From NCBI GenBank assembly GCA_023398335.1, contig JAEWSJ010000009.1, positions 55,567 through 119,566 on the forward strand: a DNA stretch of 64,000 nt, written 5' to 3'. A program made the translations under genes and the position numbers. Of the stretch, positions 8,419-57,920 are shown piece by piece. The notes under the pieces are model-generated. The model was not told the DNA's origin. It saw only the letters and a list, made by a program, of their open reading frames with translations, and searched no databases. Every line of letters begins with the position of its first letter. Within the stretch, counting starts at the first letter, position 1. The stretch comes from Bacillota bacterium (GTDB lineage: Bacteria > Bacillota_I > Bacilli_A > RFN20 > CAG-288).

Positions 8419-9678
8419 ATGCTAATGTTTGAAGAAGACAGTATTTATGAAGTAAGAGCGGATTTTGATTTATCTTGCTATGATAGAGAATTTTTAGCCA
8501 GATGTTACTTACCTTTTTTAGGTGGGAATGCTTTTGCTTTATATGAATATATGCTTTCATGTGATAAAGGGCAATACTACTTTGTTGATGATCTATGTAA
8601 GAGAATCGGAATACTTTCTTCTTCATTGATTTCTGAGCGACAAAAATTAGAAGCTTGTGGTTTGTTATCAACTTATCGTAATGAGACAAAAGATAAAATA
8701 TCTTATATTTTTATCTTGTTTGCTCCTTTATACCCAAATAAATTCTTCAATAATATTCTTTTATCTAGTTTACTTATTTCAAAAATAGGAAAAAGAGAAT
8801 TTGATAAATTAATTAATAAGTATACATCTAATTCAAAAATGGATAGTGCATTTAAAAATGTAACTATGAGATTTAATGATGTTTATGATGTTGAACCGGA
8901 TATGAACTACTATGAGACAATGAATGGAGAATCACGTGTTTTATTTGACAAACATGAAAATGAAATAAAGAGTGATTTTTCTGAAAAGAAACTTGTAGAT
9001 GAATTATCTAATATTGATGTTGATGTTAATTCTATTTCCACATATTTACCTGATATTAAACAGGTTTCTGTACTTTATAATGTTAAAGAAAAAACTTGTG
9101 CTAATCTTATTAAGTCAAGTTTAAACACAAATAATGTTTTTAATTTTGAGGCGTTTAAAGAAAACGCGTCTTTAGCTACAAAATATGGAGTTAAAGATAT
9201 TGACAATTCATTCGTTGATATTGATGAAACTTTCAATATTGGAAATTCTATGCTTGCTAAAAAAATTAAATTGTTGGAAAGTATATCTCCGAAAGAATTA
9301 TTATCTCATTCTTTAAACGACGTAGTATTACCAAAATCATATCTAGATTTAATATATAATCTTCAGAATGACTATAAGATTAATAATGGTGTATTAAATG
9401 TTGCCATTGATTACACTTTACAAAAATGCAATTTTCAATTACCTGAGATGTATATACGTAAAGTCATAATTTCGTTAGTTAAAAACAACATTAATACTTC
9501 ATCTGATGCAATGACTTATTTGGTACAGCAATCAAATAAGGTGATTAATAAGAAGAAGAGAAGCAAGTTGAATAAAGTTGAAGCAATAGTAGAGAATAAA
9601 AACGAAGTAAAGAATGATAATAATGACGATGATTTTGATTTAGAATCAGTTTTAGGAGGAGTATTTAGTGGAAAATAA
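8419..9678 (+). CDS. dnaB: Replication initiation and membrane attachment protein, B. subtilis DnaB-type (DnaD-like domains)
   Basis: N-terminus aligns to Bsu DnaB: YLPFLGGNAFALYEYML versus YQPLIGPVAHSLYMTL; ERQKLEACGLLSTY...YIFILFAPLYPNKFF versus ERLKLEGIGLLRTY...LFIYELLPPLRPDEFF. Followed by dnaI as in Bsu. Confidence 0.7.
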   Translation: MLMFEEDSIYEVRADFDLSCYDREFLARCYLPFLGGNAFALYEYMLSCDKGQYYFVDDLCKRIGILSSSLISERQKLEACGLLSTYRNETKDKISYIFILFAPLYPNKFFNNILLSSLLISKIGKREFDKLINKYTSNSKMDSAFKNVTMRFNDVYDVEPDMNYYETMNGESRVLFDKHENEIKSDFSEKKLVDELSNIDVDVNSISTYLPDIKQVSVLYNVKEKTCANLIKSSLNTNNVFNFEAFKENASLATKYGVKDIDNSFVDIDETFNIGNSMLAKKIKLLESISPKELLSHSLNDVVLPKSYLDLIYNLQNDYKINNGVLNVAIDYTLQKCNFQLPEMYIRKVIISLVKNNINTSSDAMTYLVQQSNKVINKKKRSKLNKVEAIVENKNEVKNDNNDDDFDLESVLGGVFSGK

Positions 9679-10600
9679 TATATTGAAAAATGTTCTTACT
9701 AAAGAAGAAGTAGAGAATAAAGATGTTGAAATTGAATCTAGAATTAAGAACAACGAACGTCTACAAGAAATTCTTCTGAAATTTGATGTTAGTGATGATA
9801 TAGTTAAAAAATCTTACGCACCTATATTGCGTTATTTAGACGATCAAAAGCAGTGTAATAATTGTCTTGGCTATGATAAATGTACAAAATGTAATAAAAA
9901 GGGATATCGAATCGCATTAAAATACGATCCTTTTATTGGCTATATTGATGATGCATATATAAAATGCGATTATTATAAACAAATTTGCAAATTATATGAC
10001 CGATTTATCATTTCTGATATTGACGTTGTAAAATGCAAAGATACTTTTTCTAAAACTTACGAGTATTTATTTAAGACTAAATCTTCAGTTAGGAATAGTT
10101 TTATTTCTGTAGCAAAAAGCGTGATGAAAAAATCTGTAACAAAATACTCTCCGAAAGAAATGAACTGCGGAGCGTATATTTATTCTGATAATGATAATGG
10201 TAATTTCCTTCTTTCATTAATTGCTTTTACACACGCTAAAGCTCAAAGAGATATTGTTTATTTAGAAGCAAGTAGAACCTTGACTGATGCATCTTCTTTT
10301 AATAAGGAAATTAAAGAAGAAGCGGATTCCAAAATAGAAAGAGCGAAAAACGCACCTGTTCTTGTTATTTCAAATCTTGGATTTGAATATAAATCATCTT
10401 CCGCTCGAGATATTATTTTGACACCTTTATTATCTTCAAGAGCAAAAAAAGGATTGGTTACTTATATTTCATCTCGTGTATGCTTAAATGATTTAATTTA
10501 TTCCTATGCTAAAGATGCTGTTAGTAAAAAATTCTTAGAATCATCCTTCAATAAAATTGTTGAAGAATATCACATTGAAGATATCGAATTATTTAATTAA
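9668..10600 (+). CDS. dnaI: DnaI-like helicase loader with degenerate Walker A/B (predicted ATPase-dead)
   Basis: GTG start with a GGAGG RBS. N-terminal Cys cluster (CNNCLGYDKC..C) resembles the DnaI zinc domain. The P-loop position reads YIYSDNDNGNFLL versus Bsu YLYGKFGVGKTFLL. There is no GKT/GKS anywhere in the protein. Walker B DD is replaced by SN. Confidence 0.6.
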   Translation: MENNILKNVLTKEEVENKDVEIESRIKNNERLQEILLKFDVSDDIVKKSYAPILRYLDDQKQCNNCLGYDKCTKCNKKGYRIALKYDPFIGYIDDAYIKCDYYKQICKLYDRFIISDIDVVKCKDTFSKTYEYLFKTKSSVRNSFISVAKSVMKKSVTKYSPKEMNCGAYIYSDNDNGNFLLSLIAFTHAKAQRDIVYLEASRTLTDASSFNKEIKEEADSKIERAKNAPVLVISNLGFEYKSSSARDIILTPLLSSRAKKGLVTYISSRVCLNDLIYSYAKDAVSKKFLESSFNKIVEEYHIEDIELFN

Positions 10601-10659
10601 TTATTATTTCATATAAAAATTTTCCTTATATTTACTAAATGATGTGAGGAGATTTTTTT

Positions 10660-11823
10660 ATGTTAAAACAAAAAGAACAAAGCAATTGTGGCGAGGTAGC
10701 AGTAAGAAATATAATTCATTATTTTTATAAGACAAGAGATTCCTATTTTTATAGTCTCAAAAATGATTGCAGCAATTTTTATTTGATGAAGGATTCTTTA
10801 TATGAATATGGAATTATATCAAATGGATATTCATTTACATCTTTAAAATCTCTTTGTAAAGTAAAAACTCCGTTTATTTGTTTAATAAACAGAGATGGAG
10901 AGAAACACTTTATTATTGTGAGAAAGAAAGTTTCGAATTATTTCTTAGTAAACGATTTGAACTATGGTTGGCGATTAATTAGTCTTCATAAATTTAAAGA
11001 AATATCCGAGAACAAAATACTAGTATTTGAAAATTATGAGAAAAAAAAGATTAAGAAAATAAGTCTCATTAGTAATAAATATTTACTCGCGTTAAACTTT
11101 GTTATTTTAATGGAATCGCTTTGTTTATTTTATTCTTTTGCTATTATGAACGATTCAAAATATAGTTTAATTAATTCATTAAGTTTAATAGCTGTTTTTT
11201 TATTAGCGTTTATGCATAAATCACTGTTAATTAGCGTTTCAAAACAATTTGATAAAAGTGTATCCCTAAAGTATTTTCAAGCAGTAAATAGTACAAAAGA
11301 TTATGTATTACTAAATAATTTCAAAACAAAATTTATCACTGAAATAAACGGGAAAATAAGTTCAGTATACACTTTAATATTAGCTTTGTTGGTAGCCTTT
11401 TTTTCCAGTATAGAAATGCTAGCTTTTTTACTTGTATCGTTTATTATATTTATCATATATGAATATTTATTTAGTAAATATTTGAATAAGATGGAATATA
11501 AAATTTATGAAAAAGAACAGATGTTTTTAAACAGCAATCAAATAGATGAAAATTCCTTTAATTCTTCATCGCAAATTGCTTCGAAATATGGGTTGTTAAT
11601 TGAATTAAAGAAAATACTCGTATTAATTTCTATCTTTGTATGTAGCATTTTCTATTCATATCAATCATTGAATATTTCTTATTGTATATTTTTAACTTTG
11701 TTCATTAATTATGTTGTTTCAACTTGCTATTCAAATTTTGCTTATTTCAGTGTTAATAGCAGCTATTTTAACGAAATTCTTAAGTTGGATGGTATAATTT
11801 ATGATATTATTCAAAAAGGGTGA
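10660..11823 (+). CDS. Peptidase C39-like domain fused to a 6-TM domain (ABC-exporter-like, but no NBD)
   Basis: N-terminus has Q-x5-C (QKEQSNCGEVAV), HFIIV and a downstream D/N, all typical of C39. About 6 TM helices follow. The protein ends at 387 aa with no ATPase domain, and no ABC NBD gene is adjacent. Confidence 0.5.
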   Translation: MLKQKEQSNCGEVAVRNIIHYFYKTRDSYFYSLKNDCSNFYLMKDSLYEYGIISNGYSFTSLKSLCKVKTPFICLINRDGEKHFIIVRKKVSNYFLVNDLNYGWRLISLHKFKEISENKILVFENYEKKKIKKISLISNKYLLALNFVILMESLCLFYSFAIMNDSKYSLINSLSLIAVFLLAFMHKSLLISVSKQFDKSVSLKYFQAVNSTKDYVLLNNFKTKFITEINGKISSVYTLILALLVAFFSSIEMLAFLLVSFIIFIIYEYLFSKYLNKMEYKIYEKEQMFLNSNQIDENSFNSSSQIASKYGLLIELKKILVLISIFVCSIFYSYQSLNISYCIFLTLFINYVVSTCYSNFAYFSVNSSYFNEILKLDGIIYDIIQKG

Positions 11824-11887
11824 AAAAAACGCAACAAAAATGATAGTTTACTAATGTATTATGCTATAATTAAGTGAGGTTTTAGCG

Positions 11888-12361
11888 ATGAATAATTGTG
11901 AATTTTATTTTTCTAATCAAACGACAGATGAAAATGAAGACATCGAATTATTATTTAATTCAGTTTTGCTTCATTGTTTAGATTTTATGGGACTTAAAGA
12001 CAAAATGTTAGCACTTAGTACTACGTTGGTTAATACTGAGCAAATACATAAGATTAATAAGGAATATAGAAATATAGATCGCCCAACCGATGTAATATCG
12101 TTTGCTTATGATGATGATAAAACTGAACTTAATGATGAAATAGATGATTTAGGGGAAATTGTCATTTGTTTAGATGTCGCTAGAATTCAAGCAAAAGAGT
12201 TTAATCATAAAGTCGAAAGAGAACTAGCTTTTTTATTTATTCATGGTTTTCTTCATTTGCTTGGTTACGATCATATGAAAGGTAAAAAAGAAGAGGAAGA
12301 AATGTTTTCTCTTCAAAACGATATATTAAATTCGTTTAAGTACGACTATAAGGAGATTTAA
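11888..12361 (+). CDS. ybeY: rRNA maturation endoribonuclease YbeY
   Basis: HGFLHLLGYDH zinc-binding motif. Confidence 0.9.
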   Translation: MNNCEFYFSNQTTDENEDIELLFNSVLLHCLDFMGLKDKMLALSTTLVNTEQIHKINKEYRNIDRPTDVISFAYDDDKTELNDEIDDLGEIVICLDVARIQAKEFNHKVERELAFLFIHGFLHLLGYDHMKGKKEEEEMFSLQNDILNSFKYDYKEI

Positions 12362-12363
12362 TA

Positions 12364-12786
12364 ATGATTGATATTAATGATAAGAAGGTAATTGATGAAT
12401 TGTTTGAGGATGTAAAACACGCCCAAACATTATCGTATTCGCCATATTCTAAATTTAGAGTAGGAGCTGTTATATATACAAAAGATGGAAAGAAAATTTT
12501 TGGTGCTAATATAGAAAATTCGTCTTATGGACTCTCAATGTGTGCTGAAAGAACTGCAATGTTTAAAGCTCATCTGGAAGGATATAGCAAAGAAGATATT
12601 GAAGTTTTGGCTTTGGTTGGTGATTCTTCTACATATGCTTATCCATGTGGAGCGTGTCGTCAAGTCATGTCCGAGCTATTAAGTCTAAATTGTCCAGTTA
12701 TTGTTTTTAGTAAAACTGGAGCACATATTAATTCTTCAGTCGAAGAATTATTGCCATATACATTTTCAAAGGAGAGTTTAAATTAA
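12364..12786 (+). CDS. cdd: Cytidine deaminase
   Basis: CAERTA and PCGACRQ zinc-binding motifs. Confidence 0.9.
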   Translation: MIDINDKKVIDELFEDVKHAQTLSYSPYSKFRVGAVIYTKDGKKIFGANIENSSYGLSMCAERTAMFKAHLEGYSKEDIEVLALVGDSSTYAYPCGACRQVMSELLSLNCPVIVFSKTGAHINSSVEELLPYTFSKESLN

Positions 12787-13664
12787 TGAAAGTAGGATTT
12801 TGTTGCCTTTATGGGCTTGCTAACGCTGGCAAATCAACGTTGCTCAATTCGATACTAGGAATGAAGATTGAAGCAACTTCATCAAAACCGCAGACTACGC
12901 GTGAAAATTTTCAAGGAATATACAATGATGACGATTCTCAAATCGTATTTATCGATACTCCTGGACTTCATAAGCCACATAAGAAATTGGGAAGTTTACT
13001 GATTAAAGATGCTGAAAGTGCTATTCAAAGCGTTGATGTAATCATTTATGTTGTAGATTCTTCTGAAGGTGTTAATTATAAGATACCAGAAAATCTTGCC
13101 CAATCGACAATACCTGTAATTGTAGCTTTCAATAAGATTGATTTAATCAATCTTGATGATGGTCAAAAAAGGCTTGAAGAATATAAATCTATTTTACCTA
13201 ATGCTGAGTTTATTGAAATTTCCGCAATAAAAAAATTCGGAATAGATGAGTTAATTGCCATGGTCAAAAACCATATGAATGAAGGAACACCATATTTCCC
13301 AAAAGATATGATCACTGATCATCCAACCGAATTTATTTATGCTGAAATGATTCGTGAAAAATGTATGAGACTCCTAGATGAAGAAGTTCCACACGCAATT
13401 CATGTTGAAATTACTAACGTTGAAAGTGGTGAAAATGAACAAGGAATTGTAATTTCCGCTAATATAATTGTTGAAAAAGAGTCTGAAAAAGCTATTGTAA
13501 TCGGAAAAAGCGGCAAAATGATTTCGAAAATTCGTCATTTAGCTGAACACTCAATTTCATTATTTGTTATGGATGATGTTGCTCTTGAATTATATGTTAA
13601 GGTCGTAAACGATTGGCGTAATGATGTTAGATATTTACGCAAATATGGATACGAAGGAAATTAA
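12786..13664 (+). CDS. era: GTPase Era
   Basis: G1 motif GLANAGKST, DTPG, NKID and a KH domain. Start overlaps the cdd stop (taATG). Confidence 0.9.
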   Translation: MKVGFCCLYGLANAGKSTLLNSILGMKIEATSSKPQTTRENFQGIYNDDDSQIVFIDTPGLHKPHKKLGSLLIKDAESAIQSVDVIIYVVDSSEGVNYKIPENLAQSTIPVIVAFNKIDLINLDDGQKRLEEYKSILPNAEFIEISAIKKFGIDELIAMVKNHMNEGTPYFPKDMITDHPTEFIYAEMIREKCMRLLDEEVPHAIHVEITNVESGENEQGIVISANIIVEKESEKAIVIGKSGKMISKIRHLAEHSISLFVMDDVALELYVKVVNDWRNDVRYLRKYGYEGN

Positions 13665-14404
13665 TGCCTAGTAAGATTATAACTCTAGAAGGATATATTC
13701 TTTCTAGTTCAAAATATCGTGAAAATGATTCAATAATTGTCTTACTTACTTCTTATGGAAAAAAGAATGTATTAGTAAGAGGTGGAGAGAAGCCAGACTC
13801 AAAGAATCATCAAGCAATCATTGTTTTTAATAAAGTTAAGCTTGATGTAAATTCAACTAATGAAGATTATTTATCAGCTACTTCAGTTGAAACGGAAGAA
13901 AACAATTCTGTTTTATATGAAAACTTGATCTACTCATCAATGTTGCAATTCGCTTCTGAAATTTTGTTACGAAACTTTCAGGATGATGATAGTATGCCTT
14001 ATTCATATTTTGAGCAGATGATTCATTTATCTTTGGATAATTTCGATTCGCTAACTTTGATGTTTATTTTTTTATGTCAAGCAACTAGCAGAATGGGCTT
14101 TGAACCAAATATTAATGAATGTGTTAATTGTGGTTCAAAGAAAAATTTAGTTTCGTTTGACTTAAATGAAGGTGGATTTATTTGTTCATCTTGTGCTGAA
14201 GAGATAGGATTAGAGAAATCCAATGTAAATTATATGAAAGTATTTAGATATGGCTTTATGGTTCCGGCTAATTTAATGGGCAAAAGTGTTTTGCCAAAAG
14301 ATGATACAAGAAAAGCTTTAACAGAATTAGCTATGTTCATCGAAGATCAATTCGGTGGTAGCAAGATAAAAACTCTAAAATTGTATTTAGAAATGATTAA
14401 TTAA
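13664..14404 (+). CDS. recO: DNA repair protein RecO
   Basis: Position after era as in Bsu. C-terminal zinc finger CxxC...CxxC. Confidence 0.8.
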   Translation: MPSKIITLEGYILSSSKYRENDSIIVLLTSYGKKNVLVRGGEKPDSKNHQAIIVFNKVKLDVNSTNEDYLSATSVETEENNSVLYENLIYSSMLQFASEILLRNFQDDDSMPYSYFEQMIHLSLDNFDSLTLMFIFLCQATSRMGFEPNINECVNCGSKKNLVSFDLNEGGFICSSCAEEIGLEKSNVNYMKVFRYGFMVPANLMGKSVLPKDDTRKALTELAMFIEDQFGGSKIKTLKLYLEMIN

Positions 14405-14476
14405 TTGAATAAAATATTTTTTAGTAATAAACTAAATAAATGTTGTTATACTTATTATATAAAAGAGGAAAAAATT

Positions 14477-15868
14477 ATGGAAGAAAAAAAAGAAAGAAAG
14501 CAATTTACTTTTGACAAAATTACAACTCATTTGATGACATCTGGTTTTATTTATCAAGGTAGTGAAATCTATGGTGGCTTAGCTAATTCATGGGACTATG
14601 GTCCATTAGGTTCAGCTTGCAAAAATAATTTGAAAGAATTATGGCGCCATCATTTTGTAAAAACTAATAAATACACATTTGAAATAGACCCTGCGATTAT
14701 TATGAATCCAAAAACATGGGAAGCTACAGGCCATGTGCAAAACTTTCATGATCCATTAGTCGATTGTAAATATTGTCATTCTCGTTTTAGAGCAGATAAA
14801 ATTATTAAGGATCAAAAGCCTGATTTAGATACTGATGCAATGACAACAGAAGAATTAGATTCGATGATTCAATCAGGTGAAATTGTTTGCCCAACATGTG
14901 GAAAGAGTACATTTACCCCTATTAGACAATTCCAAATGATGTTTAAAACTTTTATTGGTGTTAATGAAGAAAAAGCCTCAACAGTATATTTAAGACCCGA
15001 AACAGCACAAGGGTTATTTGTTAATTTTAAGAATGTAATGCGTACTACTAGAAGCAAATTACCTGTTGGAATTTGTGATATAGGCAAAGTATTTAGAAAT
15101 GAAATTACTCCAGGAAACTTCACATTTAGAACTAGAGAATTTGAACAAATGGAAATCGAATTCTTCTGTAAACCAGATGAAGATTTAAAATGGTTTGATT
15201 ACTGGAAATCAGAGTGCTTATCATTCGTTGAAAAATTAGGTTTAAGAGCAGATCATCTTCGCTTTAGAGATCATGAGCCAGCTGAATTAGCTTTCTATTC
15301 CAAAGCAACAACTGATATTGAATATCTTTTCCCATTTGGTTGGGGAGAGCTTATGGGAATTGCGTCCCGTACTGATTATGATTTAAAGAGACATATGGAA
15401 TACTCCGGACAAGATTTAACATATCTAGATCCTGATACAAATACAAGATACATTCCACATGTTATCGAGCCTTCATTTGGATGCGATCGTTTATTACTTG
15501 CTCTTTTATGTGATGCTTATGATGAGGAAGAACTTGAGAAAGATACGAGAATTGTTATGCATCTTGAAAAAGGATTATCTCCATATGATGTAGCAATTTT
15601 ACCTTTATCTAATAAGTTATCAGAAACTTGTGAAAATAAACTGTTCAAATTATTAGCTGAAAAATATAATGTTACTTTTGATACAACAGGTAGTATTGGG
15701 AAACGTTATCGTCGTCAAGATGCGATTGGTACACCATACTGTATTACTTACGATTTTGATTCGGAAAATGATAACATGGTTACAATTCGTGATCGTGATT
15801 CAATGAATCAAGAAAGAGTTTCAATTGACTCATTAATTAGTTACTTAAATAAACAATTTAACCGTTAA
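14477..15868 (+). CDS. glyQS: Glycyl-tRNA synthetase, alpha2 dimeric type
   Basis: N-terminus MEEKKERKQFTFDKI...GFIYQGSEIYGGLANSWDYGPLG matches GlyRS. ATG at 14477 follows an AAGAGGA RBS. The track ORF starts from a TTG at 14405 and is over-extended. Confidence 0.9.
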   Translation: MEEKKERKQFTFDKITTHLMTSGFIYQGSEIYGGLANSWDYGPLGSACKNNLKELWRHHFVKTNKYTFEIDPAIIMNPKTWEATGHVQNFHDPLVDCKYCHSRFRADKIIKDQKPDLDTDAMTTEELDSMIQSGEIVCPTCGKSTFTPIRQFQMMFKTFIGVNEEKASTVYLRPETAQGLFVNFKNVMRTTRSKLPVGICDIGKVFRNEITPGNFTFRTREFEQMEIEFFCKPDEDLKWFDYWKSECLSFVEKLGLRADHLRFRDHEPAELAFYSKATTDIEYLFPFGWGELMGIASRTDYDLKRHMEYSGQDLTYLDPDTNTRYIPHVIEPSFGCDRLLLALLCDAYDEEELEKDTRIVMHLEKGLSPYDVAILPLSNKLSETCENKLFKLLAEKYNVTFDTTGSIGKRYRRQDAIGTPYCITYDFDSENDNMVTIRDRDSMNQERVSIDSLISYLNKQFNR

Positions 15869-15892
15869 TCATAATAATAGGAGGTGTGAACT

Positions 15893-17818
15893 ATGATGCT
15901 AGATCAAAGTTTGATTGACAGTATTAGATCAAAAGCTGATATTGTTCAAGTTATTTCCTCCTATTTAGATGTTGAAAAAAAAGGCAGTAATTACCTAGCT
16001 ATTTGTCCTTTTCATCATGACACATCTCCATCGTTAACTATATCACCTACTAAACAGATTTTTACGTGCTTTGTTTGTCATACAACAGGTAATGCTTTTT
16101 CTTTTGTCATGAAATATGAACATATTGGCTTTATTGATGCGGTTAAAAAAGTTTGTTCAATTTGTGGAATAGATGTCCCTGAACTTAATAACTATAAAGT
16201 CATTAAGAGAATAAGAGAAAATGAAGAAGAACATAAAGCTTTAGAACAATTGTCAGATTACTATGCTTACATGCTTGATACTCAAGATGGAATTGAAGCT
16301 AAAAATTATTTAATTTCCCGTCAATTGCAAAATGATGTTATTAAACACTTTAAAATAGGCTATGCACCTCTAAATAATGAAGAATCCGTTAATATGTTGA
16401 GGAATAAATTGAATATTCCGCTTGAAGTATTGGATAGAGCAGGAATTACTTCCTCTTCAACCTCAACATTTAAGGATCGCTATAGAGATCGTATTATTTT
16501 TACTTTGGAAGATTTGCATGGTGATGTGGTTGGTTTCTCTGGTAGAAAATATAAAGACAATGAAGCTAACGAAGCAAAATATATTAATTCACCTGAAACC
16601 GTTCTATTTAAGAAGAGTCAATTATTGTATAATCTAAAAAACTCGATGGAATCATGTAAAAAAGATGGCTATATATATTTACTTGAAGGTTTCATGGATG
16701 TCATTGCTTTGTATCGAGCTGAAATTACATCCGCTGTAGGTCTAATGGGCACTTCTTTATCAAAGGAACATGTTGCTCTATTCAAGAAATTAAATGTTGA
16801 AATTAGATTATGTCTTGATTCTGATGGTCCAGGTCAAGCAGCTACAGAAAAATGTATTGCTGCATTATATGAAGAAAGAGTTAATTTTAAAGTAATAAAA
16901 CCTTTATATAATGGAAAAGATCCGGATGAATTGCTAGATTCAGAGGGTAAAGAAGCTCTTGTTGCTGCTATGAATGAGATTGAAGAACCGATTATTCATT
17001 CATTAAACTATAATATAAAAGCTAAATTACTAAATACATATGAAGATAAGGAAAAGTTTTTAGTTGCTAATAAAAATTATTTCTACAATATCAATACTTT
17101 AGCATTAAATGAGGTACTTGATACATTATCATTAGCTTTGAATGTTTCAGTTGACTCCATAAAAAATGTATATCGTTCTTTACGAAATAAATCTGACATT
17201 AAATCCGTACAATATGGAGACAATAAACCAGATAGAAGATATGAGTATACTTATATTGATTCATCCGTTGATATATATAAAGCACTTACAGATTACATTT
17301 TAAACATTACTGATAATGTTAGATTAAAATCAATTAATTCAAAACCAATTGTAATAAATGAATCGAGAATTATAGCTCGTATGGTCATGTCGAGAAAAAT
17401 GTGCAATGACTTTTTAAAGACTGAATCATTTGTTATTAGTCAATATAATTTGCTAGTTAGATATTTTAACGATTACTACTTGCGTAATAGTGTAGAATGT
17501 TTATGTGTGGAAAAATTGGGAGATATTGAAGACTCAGTTGAAAACACTTATGGAGAATTGATTGAGACTAATCAAAAATTTTCTAAAGACAAAGATGAGA
17601 TTTTAGGCATTATTTTACGGTTAAAGGTTTGTCATATCCCTTGTAAAACTAATATGTCTGATAGTTCTATCAGCAATCTCATTGACACTCATAAAGATTT
17701 ATGTCTAAAATTTGATATTTCAAACAAAAGTTTGGATGATAAATCTAAGGAAGAATTGATTTCTAAGTTGCAAAAAAATTACTCAAAAAAATTAGAAGGG
17801 AAGAAGAATAATGGCTAA
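15893..17818 (+). CDS. dnaG: DNA primase
   Basis: Zinc finger [10 protein letters not shown]...CFVCH, TOPRIM domain (EGFMD). Confidence 0.9.
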
Positions 17819-19013
17819 AGTAGAAAAAATTGAGATTAAAGTTGAGACAGAATGGAAAGATTTGTTATTAAAAAAAGGGACAAAAAAGGGATTTTTATCT
17901 CAAGATGATATTTACGCCATTATGGAACCTTTCGATATATCAGATGACCAATTGGACGAATTAATTAATTATGTTAAAGAATCTGGAATTGAAATTAAAA
18001 ATGATGTTGAAGAGGATGAACCTATTATTGATGATAGTTTAACACCTGAAGACTTACTTAAAAATGATGATGATATACTTGAAGATGATAATTTTGAAAT
18101 TGAAGTTGAAGAAGAGTCTATTCCTGAAATTCATGATTTAGAATTTTCAATTGATAATGTTGATATTAAGAATAATGACCCAGTTAAACAATATTTACGT
18201 GAAATTGGTAAATATCGTGTCTTAAAAGGAAAAGATGAAGAGATTGAAATTGCTCGTCGAATTGCTGAGGGTGATGAATCAGCTAAAGAAGAACTTACAA
18301 ATTGCAATTTAAAATTAGTTATTTCTATCGCTAAACACTATGTCAATAGAGGAATGCAATTCTTGGATTTAATTCAAGAAGGTAATTTAGGATTGATGAA
18401 AGCTGTCGAAAAGTTCGATTATACAAAAGGCTATAAATTTTCAACATATGCTACATGGTGGATTAGACAAGCCATCACTAGAGCTTTAGCTGATCAAGCT
18501 CGTACAATACGTATTCCTGTCCATATGGTTGAAACAATAAATAAAATTACTCGTGCTTCACGTAAATTAACACAAAAGTTAAATCGTGATCCTACACCTG
18601 AAGAAATTTCTAAAGAACTTGATGGCGCATACTCTGCTGAGAGAATTAGAGAAATTCAACTGATTGCCATGGATCCTTTATCATTAGAGAAACCTGTTGG
18701 TGAAGAAGAAGATTCACATGTTGGTGATTTCATCGAAGATAAAGATAATGAATCACCATTAAAATATGCTAATTCTTCTTTATTAAAAGATAAATTAAAT
18801 GATGTTTTAGGTGAATTAACAGATCGTGAAGAAAGAGTCATTCGTTTACGTTATGGCCTTGATGATGGAAGAAACCACACTCTTGAAGAAGTTGGCAAAG
18901 AATTTGGTGTTACTCGTGAACGTATTCGTCAAATTGAAGCCAAAGCAATTAAGAAATTACGTCATCCAACACGTTCAAAACAATTGAGAGATTATTTAGA
19001 CGATATAAATTAA
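17811..19013 (+). CDS. sigA: RNA polymerase principal sigma factor
   Basis: Regions 1.1 to 4.2 present. [14 protein letters not shown] (2.4) and [21 protein letters not shown] (4.2). The dnaG-sigA order matches Bsu. Confidence 0.9.
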
Positions 19014-19021
19014 TATTAAGT

Positions 19022-19050
19022 AAAACTGCAGAACTGCAGTTTTATTTTTT
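19022..19050 (+). terminator. Rho-independent terminator after sigA
   Basis: aaaactgcag/ctgcagtttt hairpin followed by a T-run. Confidence 0.7.
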
Positions 19051-19065
19051 TCAAAATGCTATAAT
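19034..19065 (+). promoter_or_regulatory. Candidate promoter of the second sigma gene
   Basis: TGcTATAAT extended -10 at 19057-19065. The -35 is weak. Confidence 0.35.
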
Positions 19066-47332: not shown

Positions 47333-47410
47333 AATAGTCTAAATACTCCTTTCTAGCTCTTTTAGTAATAAATTAGTATTTATTTAGTTGTTTCACATTA
47401 TATTATTAGT

Positions 47411-49078: not shown

Positions 49079-49209
49079 ATTATCACCTCATCAATTCGTA
49101 CTATTATTATATAATATTTATCGCTGATTTTGCCTATTATGTAAATTAAAAAGACTTTAATAAGATTATTTATTAAAAAAAATCTTCCCCAAAAAGGAGA
49201 AGATAAGTG

Positions 49210-51054
49210 TTATTTTGATAATAATTTTTTTACGACTGATTGTGGATCAAGAGAATATCGTTGAAGTTGATTAAGTTTATTACCTTTATCGATAAATTCA
49301 TTTGGTAAACAATATGTATTAAGTGTGCCTTTATAACCGTTTTCAGTTAATATTAGGGACAAATAGCTAGCAAACCCAATTTTTGTTGATGTAGCGTCAT
49401 AAATGTTAATTTCAACCTGATTAAGTAAGATTTCTATTAAATCTTTTGGAAAATCTTTGATTTTATTCAATACGATATAATTATATTCACCTTTTATCTT
49501 ACCTATAATGGAACTCATTTCTTTTCCTAAACCAATCACAATTTTGTTTTTGTAGGAATTATAAGAACAAATATAGTCCTTCATATCTTTATTATTAGTT
49601 AAAGATATATTATTTTTTTTCTCCAATTCTCTTTCCACACGAATTATGGTTGGTCCTTTTGTTGCAAAACTATAGTTATTTATCGTAGAAATTAGCGACT
49701 CACCATCAAAAGGACAATAGATTGATGTATTTGGAATTCCTAAGGTATAGTCAATATCGAATATTCCTTGATGTGACGAACCATCCGGCCCAATAAGACC
49801 AACTCTATCTAAGATAATTAAACTAGGAATTTCCATACGAGACAAGTCATGAAGCAATTCATCATAAGCTCTTTGCAAGAACGTGGAATAAATTGAGATA
49901 ATTGGATGTAGACCTTTTAGACCTAAACCAGCAGCAAATGTTATTGCATGCTCTTCAGCAATACCAACATCAAAACATCTAGAAGGATATTTGACAAAAA
50001 CTTCTTCTAAATGTGAACCTTTTATCATGGCAGGAACAATTAATACAGCTTTACCATCTTTATCCATCATGTATAAAATTTCATTGCCTGCTATATGCGA
50101 AAAAGAAATGTAGTCTTCATGCATATTGCTAGGTTGACCAGTTTCAATATTAAATGGTGAAGCCCCATGCCAATATCCATTTTCATCAATTTCAGCTAAT
50201 GGAAAACCTTTGCCCTTAGTGGTCTTAATGTGAATAATAACTGAATTATCAATCTGTTGAGCCCTCTTAAAGAACTTATCCATTTTCTTAATATCATGTC
50301 CATCGATTGGACCTAAATAATTAGCGTCAAAATTAGAAAAGAAATCCTGTTTGATAAATATACGTTTAATTAAGTCTTTACACGCTTTTCCACTTATATA
50401 TAGCCATCTTAAATATTTATTGTCGAAGATTTTTTTATATACATTTGCGCCAGATTGATAAAACATCGATGTACGAAGTGAATTTAGTAAAATGGAAACC
50501 GCCCCTTTCGGTTTTGAAATTGACATATTATTATCATTGATAACAATGATAAGTTTTCCATTCTTTTTGTAATCTAAATTATTTAGGGCCTCAAAGGCTA
50601 AACCATTAGCAATTGCACCATCTCCGATCACAATCACTGTTTGAGATGGATTGTTATTCATTTTTTTTGCAGCGGCCATTCCTAGGCCAACTGAAATTGA
50701 TGTAGATGAATGCCCTGCTTCATATTTATCATATTTAGACTCTTTCAAAGATTGAAAAGAGGCTAAACCGTCATTAAGTCGAATCGAAGAGATATCTCGT
50801 CCAGTTAGAATTTTATATGTGTATGTCTGGTGACCAACATCAAAAAGAATATCGTCCTTTTCGGCATCGAACGAATTCAATAAGGAGATAGTTAAATCTA
50901 CGACCCCTAGATTGGAAGAAAGGTGTCCGCCATTTAAAGAAACAACCGAAATAATTTTATTTCGAATTTCTTCAGCTAACTCTTTTTCTTCATCATATGA
51001 CATCTTTTTTAACAAATTGATATCAAAATGATTTAAATCATATTTTTCAGACAT
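49210..51054 (-). CDS. dxs: 1-deoxy-D-xylulose-5-phosphate synthase
   Basis: GHQTYTYKILTGR and IGDGA TPP motifs. 614 aa. Confidence 0.9.
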   Translation of the reverse strand: MSEKYDLNHFDINLLKKMSYDEEKELAEEIRNKIISVVSLNGGHLSSNLGVVDLTISLLNSFDAEKDDILFDVGHQTYTYKILTGRDISSIRLNDGLASFQSLKESKYDKYEAGHSSTSISVGLGMAAAKKMNNNPSQTVIVIGDGAIANGLAFEALNNLDYKKNGKLIIVINDNNMSISKPKGAVSILLNSLRTSMFYQSGANVYKKIFDNKYLRWLYISGKACKDLIKRIFIKQDFFSNFDANYLGPIDGHDIKKMDKFFKRAQQIDNSVIIHIKTTKGKGFPLAEIDENGYWHGASPFNIETGQPSNMHEDYISFSHIAGNEILYMMDKDGKAVLIVPAMIKGSHLEEVFVKYPSRCFDVGIAEEHAITFAAGLGLKGLHPIISIYSTFLQRAYDELLHDLSRMEIPSLIILDRVGLIGPDGSSHQGIFDIDYTLGIPNTSIYCPFDGESLISTINNYSFATKGPTIIRVERELEKKNNISLTNNKDMKDYICSYNSYKNKIVIGLGKEMSSIIGKIKGEYNYIVLNKIKDFPKDLIEILLNQVEINIYDATSTKIGFASYLSLILTENGYKGTLNTYCLPNEFIDKGNKLNQLQRYSLDPQSVVKKLLSK

Positions 51055-51080
51055 TTTACTAATTTATTCCTAAATATCTA

Positions 51081-51278
51081 CTATTTAGATACTATTTCGT
51101 TTGAAACCATGCTTTTTAAAGCATTAAGTTCATCTGATAAATCTTTTACTAAATCTTTTCCTTCTTTGTAAAGTGAAGCAATTTGATCAAGAGAAAGATC
51201 TTTATCATTTTCTAATTTTTCAACAATTTTGTTCAGTTTTATTGATTTTTCTTCAAATGTTTCTTTATTCTTTGTCAT
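51081..51278 (-). CDS. xseB: Exodeoxyribonuclease VII small subunit
   Basis: 65 aa, overlaps the xseA stop. Confidence 0.8.
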   Translation of the reverse strand: MTKNKETFEEKSIKLNKIVEKLENDKDLSLDQIASLYKEGKDLVKDLSDELNALKSMVSNEIVSK

Positions 51279-52492
51279 TGTTTTTGCTCCTTTATTACTG
51301 CACTGACCTTACCATCATTAAATTCAATTTCAATTATATCATTATTTTTTAGTTCTGTACTTGATGAAACAATTTTATCATCTTTTTTAATGATAGCATA
51401 ACCTTTAGACATAATATTAAACGGATTCATCCCATCTAATTTAATTTTATTATTACCTAAGAGATATTCTTCATTTAAAATAAAATGAGATAAAGCATTG
51501 TCTAAGCGTGAAGAACAATTTTTAAGAGATTCTATTCTTAAATCAAAAGTATGACTTGGTGAATGAGTTTCAATTATTTGCATTAATGAAGCAAGTTCAA
51601 TTTGACACATATTTAGTTTTGAATTAATAATATTATCTAAATCTTTATCTAAAGCATTTATATTTTGTATTATATCTGCTAAATCAGGAAGAACTTTATT
51701 AGCTGCATCCGTAGGTGTTATAGCATAGACAGAAGAAACGTAATCACATAAAGAAACATCTATTTCATGACCGATAGCGCTAATGACAGGTTTATTCATC
51801 ATTGAAAGACGGCGAACTAATTTTTCGTCATTAAAACAAGATAAATCAGTTTTAGAACCACCACCACGACCAAAAATAATTACATCAACATCAGATTTAT
51901 CTGCTCTATCTAACGCCTCAATTAATGATAAAGGAGCTTGCTCTCCTTGAACTAACGCATCAAATAAAACAGTTGAGACTGGAAATTTTTTTGATAGTGT
52001 TTCGATGATATCGTGATATGCAGCACCGGAAGCGGAAGTAATTATACCTATTTTTTTAGGAAAAGAAGGCAATGGCTTTTTTCTAGATTCATCAAACAAT
52101 CCTTCTTTTTGTAATTTTTCTTTCAATCTTTTTAATTTGATTAATTCTAGTCCTTCGCCATACAGATACAAATCTTTGGCAATTAAAGATAAGGTGCCAA
52201 AACCACCATAGTAATTAAAATCGCCTTTAACTACAACTTGGTCACCTTCGTTATATTCATCTTTAATATAGTTATTTGTCCAATTAAAAATAATAACCTT
52301 TAAAGTGCTTTTCTTCGAGGATGAAGAGGCATCTATTAAAGTAAGATAAGTATTTCCGTTTTTTACCGACTTAGAGACTATCTCGCCTAAAACGCCGATA
52401 TTCATAAATAATTCAGACTTAAAAACTTCAGAAATTATCTCGGATATCTCATTTACAGAATAAAACTCTTTCTTTTTAAATCCTTCAATCAT
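51275..52492 (-). CDS. xseA: Exodeoxyribonuclease VII large subunit
   Basis: OB-fold N-terminus and catalytic core. Order nusB-xseA-xseB-dxs as in Bsu. Confidence 0.85.
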   Translation of the reverse strand: MIEGFKKKEFYSVNEISEIISEVFKSELFMNIGVLGEIVSKSVKNGNTYLTLIDASSSSKKSTLKVIIFNWTNNYIKDEYNEGDQVVVKGDFNYYGGFGTLSLIAKDLYLYGEGLELIKLKRLKEKLQKEGLFDESRKKPLPSFPKKIGIITSASGAAYHDIIETLSKKFPVSTVLFDALVQGEQAPLSLIEALDRADKSDVDVIIFGRGGGSKTDLSCFNDEKLVRRLSMMNKPVISAIGHEIDVSLCDYVSSVYAITPTDAANKVLPDLADIIQNINALDKDLDNIINSKLNMCQIELASLMQIIETHSPSHTFDLRIESLKNCSSRLDNALSHFILNEEYLLGNNKIKLDGMNPFNIMSKGYAIIKKDDKIVSSSTELKNNDIIEIEFNDGKVSAVIKEQKQ

Positions 52493-52905
52493 TTACTTAA
52501 TAGGACCTTATCTAAAACAGCGTTGATATATTTATAGTCAGTGGAGTCTAGATATTTCTTTGCTAAATCTATTGCGCAATTTATCGCAACAGGTTTTGAA
52601 GTTAATTTACAGTATTTACATTCACTAATAGCCAATAAAAATATAGCTTGAGCGATATAATTAAGTCTATCGAAAGTCCATTTATTCAAAAATGGAGATA
52701 CTTCACTAACAATTTGATCTTTATTTACAAGAGCCTTAACAAAAACTTCTTGAGCAAATAAATCTATATCGGTAAATTCCGAACTATCAAAACAATCCAT
52801 CAATTCATCTTTTGGATCAAAGTCATTTCCCGCTTTTTCTTTTATCAAACATGAGTAAAGAGCATTCATAATTTTTTCTCTAATAGCAAATCTTGTTAAT
52901 TCCAT
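52489..52905 (-). CDS. nusB: Transcription antitermination factor NusB
   Basis: 138 aa with the NusB fold pattern. Confidence 0.8.
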   Translation of the reverse strand: MELTRFAIREKIMNALYSCLIKEKAGNDFDPKDELMDCFDSSEFTDIDLFAQEVFVKALVNKDQIVSEVSPFLNKWTFDRLNYIAQAIFLLAISECKYCKLTSKPVAINCAIDLAKKYLDSTDYKYINAVLDKVLLSK

Positions 52906-52974
52906 AATTAATCTCCCTATTCATGTTTTCAAAGAACGTTATTTTTTAAACCTTTGTAATTATATACTATCGGC

Positions 52975-53319
52975 TTAATAAATTCCACAAATTTTTATAT
53001 CGACATTTATATTTGAATATTCAGTCATGCTTATGACGTTATCAAATATTTCTTTTTGCAATTCTTGACATATTTTAGTCGCGTTACTATCTTTCTTAAA
53101 AGATAAGCAAACTTTTATGGATATCAAATTATTTTTAATTAAAGTAGAAACTGGTTCAGTTAACTTAGCAATTTTATTTTTATCTTCGTTATCTTTATCA
53201 TCCAAAACGATATAACCTACATCTTCTAATACATAATTGACCATTTGACAAATGGCTAAATAAGATACGGATGTAACTCCTCTGCTATTTGAACTAGATA
53301 TATTTATATACTCTGCCAT
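52975..53319 (-). CDS. Asp23/Gls24 family protein (YqhY-like)
   Basis: Upstream of nusB as yqhY is in Bsu. Confidence 0.65.
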   Translation of the reverse strand: MAEYINISSSNSRGVTSVSYLAICQMVNYVLEDVGYIVLDDKDNEDKNKIAKLTEPVSTLIKNNLISIKVCLSFKKDSNATKICQELQKEIFDNVISMTEYSNINVDIKICGIY

Positions 53320-53321
53320 AA

Positions 53322-55472
53322 TTAATCTCCTTTTTTATCAGTAACACGTTTCATGGATAAACCAATTCTATTACGCTTTTCATCAATACTGATAACTTCT
53401 ACTTTTACTATATCACTAATCTTGACAATATCGGAAACGTTTTTAACATAAGATGAAGATAACTCTGAAATATGAACTAATCCATCTTCATGGATTCCAA
53501 TATCCACAAAACATCCAAAGTCCATAATATTTCTTACTGTTCCTTCAAGAACCATACCAATTTTCAAATCCTTAATTGATTTAACATCGTTATTAAGTTG
53601 AGCTTTGATAACTGAATCACGTGGATCTCTATTAGGTTTGCTAAGTTCAAGAATAATATCATTTAATGTTAAAATACCACAATTCAATTTTTCGGCATTT
53701 TTTTCTTTTGAAGACTCGTCAAGGACACTTAATTGCTCAGCGCATTTTGATATATCAGTTATATTAAGTTCTTTTATCAATTCTTTAGCAATTTTATATG
53801 ACTCTGGGTGAATACCAGTGTTATCTAATGGTTCTTCTCCGTTTTTAATACGTAAAAATCCAGCTGCATTTTCAAAGGCTTTAGGGCCAAATTTCTTAAC
53901 TTTGGAAAAATCTTTTCTATTCTTAAACATACCGTTCGTAGAACGATATAAAACTATTTCGTTGGCTAAAGCAGCATTAATTCCGGATACATAACTCAGT
54001 AAAGAAGGTGAAGCTACATTGATATCAACCCCAACAGCATTAACACAATCTTCGACAATACCACCTAAAGCATCTTTTAACTTCGTCTGATTCATATCGT
54101 GTTGATATTGACCAACCCCGATGCTACGTGGATCGATTTTAACCAATTCGGATAATGGATCTAATAAACGACGAGCAATACTTACAGCACTACGTAAGGA
54201 AACATCAAATTTCGGAAATTCTTTTATCGCTAGTTCTGACGCACTATAAATAGAAGCACCTGCTTCAGAAACAATGACTAATTCACATGATGGATAATTC
54301 TTCAATATTCTATGTAAAAATTCTTCAGATTCACGTGAAGCTGTTCCATTACCTAGTGCTATATATGTAACATTGAATTTTTTTATTAAGTCAGATATCA
54401 CTTGTTCGTCTTTACTAATGGTACTCTTTCCTTTAATAGTAGGATAAACAATAGAAGTAGCTAAAACATCACCTTTTGAATCTATAACGGCGATTTTACA
54501 TCCGTTAATATATCCAGGATCAAAGCCCATTATTACTTGACCTTTTAAAGGAGCAACCATCAGTAATTCTCTTAGATTAATTTTAAAAGTTTCAATTGAT
54601 GAATCCTCTGCTTTAGTGAATAAATCACTTAGAACATCATTATCAACACTAGGTTTTATTAATCTAATATATGAATCCTTGATAATATCATCAAATATTG
54701 TTTGATATGGAGTATTAACTGTTTTAGCGAATATCTTTAGATGAGCATAAACTTCATCTTCGGATACTAATACTTCTCGAGTTAAGCATTTTTCTTTTTC
54801 TCCTCTAGATGTAGCTAAGATTCGATGCGGACGGATTTTAGAAATTAACTCTTTATAATTGTCATAATCATTGTAGACATCACTTGTAGGATTTTTTACT
54901 AGATTAGAAGATAAAAAACCTTTTTTATTAATTAAATTTTTCAAAAAAGTACGATAATTTGGATTATCAGATATTTCCTCAGCAATGATATCTTTAGCAC
55001 CGTTTATGGCATCATCAATTGTTTTTACGCCTTTTTCTTCAGAAATATATTTCTTCGCTTCATCTTTAAGTGTATTGGTCTTATCTGTTTTTAGAAACTC
55101 CGCTAGAGGTTTTAGACCTTTTTTAACCGCTATTGAACCACGTGTTTGACGTTTTGGCTTAAAAGGGCGATAAATATCTTCAAGATTAGAGTTAATTTCA
55201 CATTTTTCAATTTCACTTCGTAACTCATCAGTTAATTTTCCTTGTGATTCAATCGACTCTAAAATGGTTTTCTTTCGAGCTTCAATATTTCTTATATATG
55301 TAAGTCTTTCTAATAATTTACGAACATTGACGTCTTCCATTCCATTAGTTACTTCTTTTCTATAACGAGAAATGAATGGAATAGTCGCACCATTGTCAAG
55401 GAGTTCGACAGTGGCAGCGATATATTTCTCTTCTATATTTAACTCATACGATAACTTCTTAATTAAATCCAT
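53322..55472 (-). CDS. tex: Transcription accessory protein Tex (YqgF/HhH/S1 domains)
   Basis: 716 aa with a C-terminal S1 domain. Confidence 0.9.
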   Translation of the reverse strand: MDLIKKLSYELNIEEKYIAATVELLDNGATIPFISRYRKEVTNGMEDVNVRKLLERLTYIRNIEARKKTILESIESQGKLTDELRSEIEKCEINSNLEDIYRPFKPKRQTRGSIAVKKGLKPLAEFLKTDKTNTLKDEAKKYISEEKGVKTIDDAINGAKDIIAEEISDNPNYRTFLKNLINKKGFLSSNLVKNPTSDVYNDYDNYKELISKIRPHRILATSRGEKEKCLTREVLVSEDEVYAHLKIFAKTVNTPYQTIFDDIIKDSYIRLIKPSVDNDVLSDLFTKAEDSSIETFKINLRELLMVAPLKGQVIMGFDPGYINGCKIAVIDSKGDVLATSIVYPTIKGKSTISKDEQVISDLIKKFNVTYIALGNGTASRESEEFLHRILKNYPSCELVIVSEAGASIYSASELAIKEFPKFDVSLRSAVSIARRLLDPLSELVKIDPRSIGVGQYQHDMNQTKLKDALGGIVEDCVNAVGVDINVASPSLLSYVSGINAALANEIVLYRSTNGMFKNRKDFSKVKKFGPKAFENAAGFLRIKNGEEPLDNTGIHPESYKIAKELIKELNITDISKCAEQLSVLDESSKEKNAEKLNCGILTLNDIILELSKPNRDPRDSVIKAQLNNDVKSIKDLKIGMVLEGTVRNIMDFGCFVDIGIHEDGLVHISELSSSYVKNVSDIVKISDIVKVEVISIDEKRNRIGLSMKRVTDKKGD

Positions 55473-55492
55473 AATATATTCCTTATCCTTTT

Positions 55493-55516
55493 AAAAAAGT
55501 CCAAGAAGGACTTTTT
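55493..55516. terminator. Terminator of leuS (usable in both directions), overlapping the leuS stop
   Basis: aagtcc aagaa ggactt hairpin flanked by A6 and T5. Confidence 0.6.
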
Positions 55517-57920
55517 ATCTAACAACAATATTCAATATTTTGTTTTTTACAAATATAACCTTAACTATTGTTTTGCCGTCTAAATTACGTTTTACCGCAT
55601 CTATTTCACTAGCTAAAGCTAATACCTTATTCTGATCATTTTCATCTCTAGTTACTTCAAGAGTACCTCTTGTTTTGCCATTAACGGATACGGCTATAAC
55701 AACAGTATTTTGAACTGTCTTATTATCATCGTAAGTTGGCCAAGATTCAAAATCTATAAAGCCATTCCCACCCATCATATTAAACAATTCTTCGCCAACA
55801 TGTGGAACAACTGGGAATAACATTTTTACTAAGCCTAACATATATGTTCTATTTAGTTTTGGTGAATTATATAGTTCATTAACAAAAATCATCAATTGAG
55901 ATATTGCAGTGTTAAAACTTAAGCTTTCATAATCAGCAGTAACTTTCTTAACTGTATAGTTATATATGTAATCAAGAGACTTAACTTCTTCATCAGTCCA
56001 TTTTACTAGATATTCTTCATCTGAAAATAATCTATATACTCTTTGAATAAATCTCTTTGCGCCAGCTAAGCCATTATTAGACCATGGTAAACTTTGATTT
56101 AATGGTCCCTTAAACAATTCATATAATCTAAGCGAATCAGCACCAAATTCATTTATAACATCATCAGGATTAACAACATTACCTCTAGATTTAGACATTT
56201 TTTGTCCATCAGAGCCTAAAATCATTCCTTGATGATATAATTTCTTAAATGGTTCTTTGCAGGAGAATACACCTTTGTCATATAAGTATTTATGCCAAAA
56301 TCTAGCATAAAGAAGATGTAAAACCGCGTGCTCAGATCCGCCGATATATTGATCAACTGGTAGCCAATGATCAAGCAATGTTTTATCGCCAATTTCATTT
56401 TCATTTTTAGGATCAATATAACGAGCATAATACCATGATGAACCAGCCCATTGAGGCATAATGTTAGTTTCTCTTTCACCTTTTTTACCATCAATTACAA
56501 CATTGATAAATGATGTAGCTTTTGAAAGAGGTGGCTTACCATTTGTAGTAGGTTTATAATCATCAAGTTCAGGTAAGACTAATGGAAGTTCACTGTAATT
56601 AACAGGTTTTAACGAACCATCTTCCATATGAATTACTGGAATTGGTTCACCCCAATAACGTTGACGTGAAAACAACCAGTCACGTAATTTGAAATTAACC
56701 TTACGTTGACCTTTTCCACTTTCTTCTAGATGCTTTGTAATTATTTCTTTAGCATCTTTTATATTTAATCCATCGGCATATGAAGAATTCATATGTTTTG
56801 AATCACCTTCAAACGCACATGAAGATATATCACCTTCAAGAACTTGAATCATTTCAATATTATGTTTTTTAGCGAATTCGTAATCTCTTTGATCATGAGA
56901 AGGAACAGCCATTACCGCTCCCGAACCATAAGAAGCTAAAACATAATCACCTATATATATAGGAACGATGGTGTTATTAATTGGATTTATAGCGTAAGCG
57001 CCAATAAACACTCCTGTTTTATCTTTATTTAATTCTGTTCTTTCAAGATCAGATTTAGATTTAATCGAGTCTAAATATGCATCGACATATTTTTGACATT
57101 CTTTTGATGTCAATTTCTTTACTAATGGATGTTCTGGGGCTAAAACAACGTATGTACAGCCAAATAAAGTATCTACTCTAGTTGTATAGACATTAAAGTA
57201 GTCTGAAGTATTTTTAACATCAAAGCGAACTTCAACACCTTCAGAGCGACCTATCCAGTTACGTTGCATTTCTACAGTTGAACTTGGCCATTCAAGCAAT
57301 GGTAAATCATCTAATAATTTTTGAGCATAAGCAGTAATTTTTAATATCCATTGTTTCATTTGAACTTTAATTACTGGGAATCCACCACGTTCTGACTTGC
57401 CGTCAATAATTTCTTCGTTAGCCAAAACAGTTCCGAGTTCCGGACAATAGTTAACCGGTCTTTCATCCATATATGCTAATTTATCATCAAATAATTTTAA
57501 GAATATCCATTGTGTCCATTTATAAAAAGATGGATCTGATGTATGAATTTCCTTGCTCCAATCATAAGACAAACCACATGAATTCATTTGCTTTTTAAAA
57601 TTTTGAATATTTGCTTCGGTAAATGGGCCAGGATTATTGTTAGTTTTTATCGCATATTGTTCCGCTGGTAAGCCGAAAGAATCAAAACCCATTGGATAAA
57701 GAACGTTAAAGCCTTGCATTCTTTTCATTCTAGCGGTAGCGTCACTGGCGGTATATCCTTCAATATGTCCAACATGTAAACCTTGGGCTGATGGATATGG
57801 GAACATATCCATTAAAAAATACTTAGGTTTAGAAAAATCACGAACATCACATTCATAAATATTACTTTCCAACCATTTCTTTTGCCATTTTTTCTCTATT
57901 TCATTTGCATCATAAGTCAT
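55515..57920 (-). CDS. leuS: Leucyl-tRNA synthetase
   Basis: HVGH and KMSKS motifs. 801 aa. Confidence 0.95.

Follow-up and report, generated by a model that had tools for sequence, protein, structure and literature searches.

A dif site at a convergent gene-orientation switch in the probable replication terminus region of an uncultured low-GC Bacilli chromosome

Does the abrupt switch in gene orientation at about 40.7 kb in a stretch of 64,000 nucleotides from an uncultured Bacillota bacterium (assembly GCA_023398335.1, contig JAEWSJ010000009.1, positions 55,567 to 119,566; hereafter the window) mark the place where chromosome replication ends, or is it just a junction at which two operons happen to converge? 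An earlier note on this DNA, made from the sequence alone, had placed the replication terminus at the switch, and our analyses uphold that claim for the terminus region: the intergenic gap at 40544..40992, on which the two gene blocks converge, very probably lies in the replication terminus region of a Bacilli chromosome of about 30% GC, and a 28-mer inside it is its chromosomal dif site. The reading is carried by the dif site in the gap, by a flip in third-codon-position skew that holds once gene strand is controlled for, and by the same convergence of genes in 28 relatives.

Our gene list was built from open reading frames (ORFs), family assignments (Pfam and NCBIfam) and the public ENA gene calls, and the window, with a GC content of 0.304, was extended by 10 kb on both sides from its 93.6-kb metagenomic scaffold to give the 83-kb scaffold referred to below. 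Exact protein matches locate the window at 17166..81165 of that ENA scaffold, LEMO22-1_SAMN17215542_METAG-scaffold_38 (93,572 bp). In the block left of the gap, 27 of the 30 genes are on the plus strand and three on the minus strand; the 29 of 32 counted earlier thus had the pattern right but two genes too many, and the three exceptions named then, ispH, ispG and plsY, are indeed on the minus strand, as confirmed by NCBIfam or Pfam. The claim that all 14 genes between 41 and 57.9 kb are on the minus strand stood up to a recount (13 genes of 100 aa or more and xseB, 51081..51278), and this minus-strand block runs for about 8.5 kb past the end of the window, with rpsD as the exception. Over the whole 83-kb scaffold, 37 plus- and 8 minus-strand genes lie left of dif and 24 minus- and 2 plus-strand genes right of it, a co-orientation of 86%, and the switch itself falls, as had been stated, within the gap that contains the dif-like 28-mer. 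Rfam and tRNA scans found no Rfam family and no tRNA gene in the window, the gap included. Coordinates of these and the other features are collected in Table 1.

The 28-mer, ACTTCGTATAATCTCTATTATGTAAACT, has the same architecture of 11-bp arm, 6-bp centre and 11-bp arm as the experimentally defined dif of Bacillus subtilis, ACTTCCTAGAATATATATTATGTAAACT (Kono et al. 2011, PMC3025954), which is served by CodV (XerC) and RipX (XerD), and the two are identical at 24 of 28 bases. The right arm, TTATGTAAACT, is the same in both, and the four mismatches are split between the left arm and the central hexamer, the latter being TCTCTA here and TATATA in B. subtilis. Read from the sequence, the two arms are complementary at 7 of 11 positions, with a symmetrical inner ATAA/TTAT; going by Escherichia coli and B. 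subtilis, XerC would be expected on the left arm and XerD on the right one. In an arm-pattern scan, the 28-mer was the single match in the window, at zero mismatches, and a position-weight scan returned it as the single high-scoring site in the 83-kb scaffold. The arm pattern was expected to give 0.05 chance matches at up to three mismatches, a figure that has little weight because the pattern was drawn up after the site had been seen, N standing for the two arm positions at which it differs from the B. subtilis dif. A search of the window with the B. subtilis dif itself, at up to three mismatches, gave no match, since the site differs from it at four positions.

A stronger argument for dif than any chance-match figure is the conservation of the site. 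The closest relatives of the XerD protein encoded nearby (42–69% identity) come from uncultured metagenome-assembled genomes (MAGs) labelled "Bacilli", "Erysipelotrichaceae", "Clostridium sp. CAG:288" and "Candidatus Enteromonas"; the last two are examples of gut and rumen MAGs. The group probably corresponds to the GTDB order RFN20; its genomes are fragmented and none is closed, the longest contig with the same gene order being 400 kb, of which 20 kb was read. Fetched through XerD, 28 loci of 30–61% GC have a 28-mer with at most four arm mismatches, always 1.5–5 kb 3' of xerD and always in one relative orientation, and a position-weight scan added five further loci with the site at the same place, making 33 (within L005–L064). 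When 18 of these regions were aligned with 50-bp flanks, the 28-mer was the sole conserved block and the rest of the intergenic DNA could not be aligned; all 17 invariant columns belong to the arms (CTTCG-ATAA and TTATGT-AA), the hexamer between them being variable, a pattern expected of a recombinase-binding site. The consensus of the relatives is ACTTCGCATAA-TGTCYA-TTATGTTAACT, and the lineage form can be written ACTTCGCATAA-N6-TTATGTTAACT. No such site was found within 10 kb of xerD in more distant genomes (Clostridia, Heliobacteria and others), and the sole non-fragmented related genome found, a distant 2.09-Mb contig, has no dif-like site near xerD. Within the lineage, ORFs converge on the dif-like site in all 28 loci, typically with 10–14 plus- and 0–2 minus-strand ORFs on the left and 0–1 plus- and 5–7 minus-strand ORFs on the right.

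The check proposed earlier was a change in the sign of the skew at about 40.7 kb, and such a change is present: the GC skew falls from +0.137 at 39–41 kb to −0.052 at 41–43 kb, and the base-level cumulative G−C curve peaks at 40670, 107 bp from dif, whether the window or the 83-kb scaffold is taken. It is not decisive, however, since the skew flips elsewhere too. The smoothed GC skew also changes sign at about 2, 8.1, 28.5–29.8, 38.3 and 58.8 kb, so that the window has at least six sign changes, and all but the brief crossing at 38.3 kb fall at a change of gene strand. The cause lies in codon composition: the G−C skew at codon position 1 is +0.44 in every gene group, and with first positions this rich in G the raw skew flips with the gene strand. 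In relatives of 51–61% GC (L026–L029, L033, L036, L042–L047, L055, L056 and L064), the raw GC skew around dif is opposite in sign to that of the low-GC genomes with the same gene convergence, from which we conclude that the raw skew mirrors coding composition. The raw-skew check therefore cannot decide the terminus question.

The window holds an internal control for this, a 6.4-kb island of five minus-strand genes (thrS to the gene for a CmpB-like membrane protein), both edges of which show raw-skew flips that mimic an origin and a terminus and neither of which is one. To the left of 1.8 kb the genes are back on the plus strand. The island itself is on what would be the lagging strand; genes of these kinds are normally highly expressed, and here they would be transcribed head-on to replication. 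The right edge of the island, at about 8.3 kb, is a divergent switch that we considered as an origin and rejected, as it has no dnaA or dnaN and the genes further left are again on the plus strand. Its minus-to-plus flip at 8.1 kb does look like an origin on the raw plot, but the cumulative minimum shifts to the end of the scaffold once the flank is added, and over the 83 kb the cumulative G−C curve is without an interior minimum.

To separate coding bias from replication bias, we read the GC skew at third codon positions (GC3 skew) in the coding orientation of each gene. Genes pointing towards dif have practically the same mean GC3 skew on the two sides (p = 0.98), −0.004 for the 37 left of the site and +0.005 for the 24 right of it, whereas the ten genes pointing away from it have a mean of −0.25 (Mann–Whitney p = 1e-4); the difference between genes pointing away and towards dif holds when thrS, pyk, pfkA and rpsD are left out (p = 0.004). 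All plus-strand genes compared with all minus-strand genes show no such difference (p = 0.21), which weighs against a single replichore spanning the window. We then fitted GC3 skew by weighted regression on two terms, one for gene strand and one for replication, the latter changing sign at position t. The replication term is b = +0.12, meaning that G exceeds C on the leading strand, and the best change-points are at 39.5 and 40.8 kb, with residual sums of squares (RSS) of 104 and 105; the RSS is 141.5 with the replication term removed, and permuting the gene values 1000 times never gave the improvement brought by the change-point. These results support a replication-associated skew that changes sign at the dif locus independently of the coding strand.

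Of the readings that compete with a terminus region at the gap, the one that survives best accepts the site as a true dif but has the forks usually meeting more than about 10 kb away, which would make the gap a dimer-resolution site and an operon boundary. In its favour, Kono et al. (PMC3025954) conclude that dif is close to the site of replication termination without being identical to it, and the resolution of our change-point is several kb, because any t from about 36.6 to 46 kb fits within 8% of the best RSS. On the other hand, the cumulative G−C peak and the best-fitting change-points all fall close to dif, and the orientation switch is located exactly in the gap, in the window as well as in the 28 relatives. 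We thus hold a distant meeting place to be unlikely, and have chosen the wording "terminus region" as the safer one because the forks need not end at dif itself (PMC3025954).

Less probable again, and in our view very unlikely, is an ordinary convergent operon junction inside one replichore, with the skew explained by coding bias and the 28-mer by a chance match or the attachment site of a mobile element. Such a reading would account for the raw signal, given the first-position skew and the flips at nearly every strand change, among them those at about 2 and 8.1 kb with no origin or terminus there; it fares badly with third codon positions, where a single replichore fits far worse than a change-point at the gap (RSS 136.9 against 105) and where genes pointing towards dif share their GC3 skew in spite of lying on opposite strands and differ from those pointing away, as borne out by the permutation test. 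Nor would chance or a passing element easily keep the 28-mer in 33 genomes amid intergenic surroundings that cannot be aligned, and the vicinity contains neither integrase or phage genes nor another copy of dif. As for an assembly chimera of two unrelated contigs, the metagenomic origin of the scaffold invites the suspicion, but it is refuted by four independent assemblies with the identical junction and dif (one from ENA and three from Logan) and by the gene order across the junction in 28 relatives, and its probability is negligible.

Several observations nevertheless weigh against a terminus region at the gap and temper our confidence in it. Coding bias dominates the raw skews, GC and AT alike, and leaves them little independent weight; moreover, only 83 kb of the replicon are covered, and the peak at 40670 is the maximum within that stretch. 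The GC3 test, besides having a broad optimum, depends on just ten genes that point away from dif, and a preference for C-ending codons is possible in the four of them that are probably highly expressed. In the relatives, the pooled GC3 skews hardly differ, being −0.247 for genes that point towards dif and −0.286 for those that point away, a comparison that is uninformative because of the few away-pointing genes and the mixed GC contents. Of the polar motifs sought over the 83 kb, the B. subtilis SpoIIIE recognition sequence (SRS) GAGAAGGG, the E. coli FtsK-orienting polar sequence (KOPS) GGGNAGGG and the Lactococcus lactis GAAGAAG are present in 0–1 copies or are confounded with coding strand; skewed k-mers found de novo in the same 83 kb are A-rich coding words, and no polar motif that would orient FtsK or SpoIIIE was demonstrated. 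Finally, besides xerD, the 64 kb of the window contain no second tyrosine recombinase, no xerC and no ftsK or spoIIIE.

With the gap in the terminus region, which we regard as very probable, the layout of the locus can be read as follows. The fork arriving from the left would have the plus strand leading and the one from the right the minus strand, and the roughly 86% of genes co-oriented with the fork, a share usual for Bacillota, would make the two blocks converge at the gap. After an odd number of crossovers, sister chromosomes would be linked into a dimer, which XerC and XerD, bound to the two arms of dif, would resolve by recombining both copies at the division septum, with XerD encoded 4.5 kb away and XerC and an FtsK/SpoIIIE translocase presumably encoded elsewhere in the genome. 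Such a terminus locus is an ordinary chromosome landmark and goes against nothing in current understanding.

Table 1. Features of the window, with positions counted from its first nucleotide and GC3 skew given in coding orientation
Feature	Position	Strand	Remarks
Left block, pointing towards dif	8419..40543	+	27/30 genes; mean GC3 skew ~0.00
Right block, pointing towards dif	40993..57920	-	14/14 genes; GC3 skew ~0.00, same as left block
Convergent intergenic gap	40544..40992	.	449 bp, 22.5% GC; bounded by the stop codons of mtnN (+) and the ABC permease gene (-)
Terminator-like hairpin with a T-run after it	40558..40584	+	3' of mtnN; 1 found, 0.1 expected from shuffles
dif site, ACTTCGTATAA-TCTCTA-TTATGTAAACT	40777..40804	+	28 bp: two 11-bp arms, 6-bp centre
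ABC permease and two tandem paralogous lipoproteins	40993..44009	-	Sole variable content on the xerD side of dif among relatives
xerD, tyrosine recombinase gene	45277..46179	-	4.5 kb from dif; ENA gene call starts at 46155 (292 aa)
parE-parC (topoisomerase IV)	32141..36665	+	4–8.6 kb left of dif
ispH, pointing away from dif	20777..21634	-	GC3 skew −0.19
ispG, pointing away from dif	28884..29924	-	GC3 skew −0.14
plsY, pointing away from dif	31266..32042	-	GC3 skew −0.28
rpsD, pointing away from dif	58224..58835	+	GC3 skew −0.51; sole such gene of the window right of dif
Five-gene island pointing away from dif: thrS, ROK kinase, pyk, pfkA, CmpB-like membrane protein	1876..8309	-	GC3 skew −0.28

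The earlier note had also suggested that the flanks of the switch deserve scrutiny, regions near the terminus being hotspots for accessory DNA. It described their contents correctly, with the permease and the two lipoproteins nearest to dif and xerD, dinB and recN beyond them, but the hotspot did not materialise. The plus-strand genes of the left block include those for a dnaB-like loader, dnaI, ybeY, cdd, era, recO, glyQS, dnaG, rpoD, apt, relA, hisS, aspS, a DEAD-box helicase, rpmG, efp, parE, parC, yqeG, yqeH, nadD-yqeK, rsfS and mtnN; the right block, starting from dif, consists of the ATP-binding cassette (ABC) permease, two lipoproteins, deoB, xerD, dinB, recN, dxs, xseB, xseA, nusB, an unknown gene, tex and leuS. 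These are housekeeping genes, and by tblastn the order nusB-xseA-dxs-dinB-xerD-deoB-(lipoprotein-permease)-dif-(mtnN-rsfS)-nadD-yqeH-yqeG-parC-parE recurs in the 28 relatives, with shorter loci partly cut off and with protein identities of 25–79%. The GC contents of the genes beside dif, 0.28–0.33 compared with 0.304 for the window, are unremarkable, and xerD excepted, no integrase, transposase or phage genes are present in the flanks. The 20-kb neighbourhood of dif is, in short, unusually stable and not accessory DNA.

What variation there is lies immediately beside the site. The permease, the lipoprotein unkA or both were matched in 21 of the 28 loci and absent from 7, with the match inverted in 4 of the 21; across dif, mtnN and rsfS are variable, mtnN being found only in the two closest relatives. 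The two lipoproteins (41925..44009; 350 and 343 aa) are 29% identical to each other, carry the lipoboxes LTSC and ISSC and matched no Pfam or NCBIfam family; standing beside an ABC permease with no ATPase gene nearby, they are probably novel substrate-binding proteins.

The recombinase gene itself is best described as a xerD. Its product scores 327.3 bits with the TIGR02225 XerD model, slightly under the cut-off of 329.6, and 297.7 bits with PRK00283, above the cut-off of 279; the XerC model gives a lower score of 273.7 bits, and the XerS model, with a cut-off of 267, no more than 117.7 bits. Its closeness to dif is a property of the lineage: xerD lies 1.5–5 kb from dif in the 33 loci, and topoisomerase IV is found within about 9 kb across dif in most of the 28, with parC, parE or both on the same side of the site in 23. 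XerCD systems are not generally known to have xerD linked to dif. Given that dif has xerD to one side and parC and parE to the other, none further off than about 9 kb, one could imagine that the linkage has been selected, for example for a local or timed supply of the machinery of resolution and decatenation, although we consider this rather doubtful; alternatively, it may be passive synteny in small, rarely rearranging genomes.

Compared with well-studied systems, the locus comes closest to that of B. subtilis: in both, dif is located in an intergenic gap at the switch in skew and gene orientation, an XerD-family recombinase is encoded, and genes are strongly biased towards the leading strand; here, the copy of dif is the only one within the 83 kb. 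The differences are the central hexamer, the two changes in the left arm and the position of xerD, which is 4.5 kb from dif here, with the linkage lineage-wide; in B. subtilis, ripX is not known to lie beside dif. With the E. coli dif, which functions with XerCD and FtsK, the consensus of the relatives shares GCGCATAA...TTATGTTAA as well as the position at the convergence of the replichores; unlike in E. coli, no KOPS-like polar motif was shown in the 83 kb, and the gene-strand bias here is, at 86%, far stronger. A strong gene-strand bias is expected for Bacillota that carry PolC. A recombinase gene near its site by the terminus is known from XerS/difSL of streptococci and lactococci and from XerH/difH of epsilon-proteobacteria (PMC3025954), and in this respect our locus is similar to them. 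Those sites, however, are of another length and sequence and lie right beside the recombinase gene, whereas here the site is a classical 28-bp dif of the XerCD type, the recombinase scores as XerD, and deoB, with or without the transporter set, lies between xerD and dif. All in all, the locus pairs a dif of the classical XerCD type with a terminus region of the Bacillota type, and only the lineage-wide proximity of xerD, parC and parE to dif is mildly unusual.

A few other features of the window may be recorded for their own sake. Two genes of the sigma-70 family lie side by side at 17811..20121, rpoD (400 aa) and then a second, RpoD/RpoS-like sigma factor gene (342 aa), and directly 3' of the dnaB-like loader and dnaI, at 10660..11823, there is a gene for a 387-aa protein with an N-terminal C39 peptidase domain and without ABC transporter domains. 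Close to dif, nadD and yqeK form one fused ORF of 368 aa (38356..39462) that combines a nicotinate-nucleotide adenylyltransferase with an HD-domain diadenosine tetraphosphate (Ap4A) hydrolase. Towards the right end, at 59775..63787, the gene for a 706-aa leucine-rich-repeat adhesin-like protein adjoins that for an unusually long (630 aa) MalK-like ABC ATPase, and directly past the end of the window come two genes of the alpha-amylase family and a sugar ABC transporter.

For low-GC Bacillota more widely, our analyses show that a flip in the raw GC skew tracks the gene strand and is by itself no evidence of a terminus, the informative test being the GC3 skew with gene strand as a covariate. For this lineage, the site anchors the replichore structure of a genome that is known from metagenomic scaffolds, and the dif sequence and the lineage consensus offer a means of orienting and joining MAG contigs from this group. 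If the proximity of xerD, parC and parE to dif were truly selected, it would mean that an uncultured lineage of Bacilli, spanning 30–61% GC, has kept this machinery beside its site of action.

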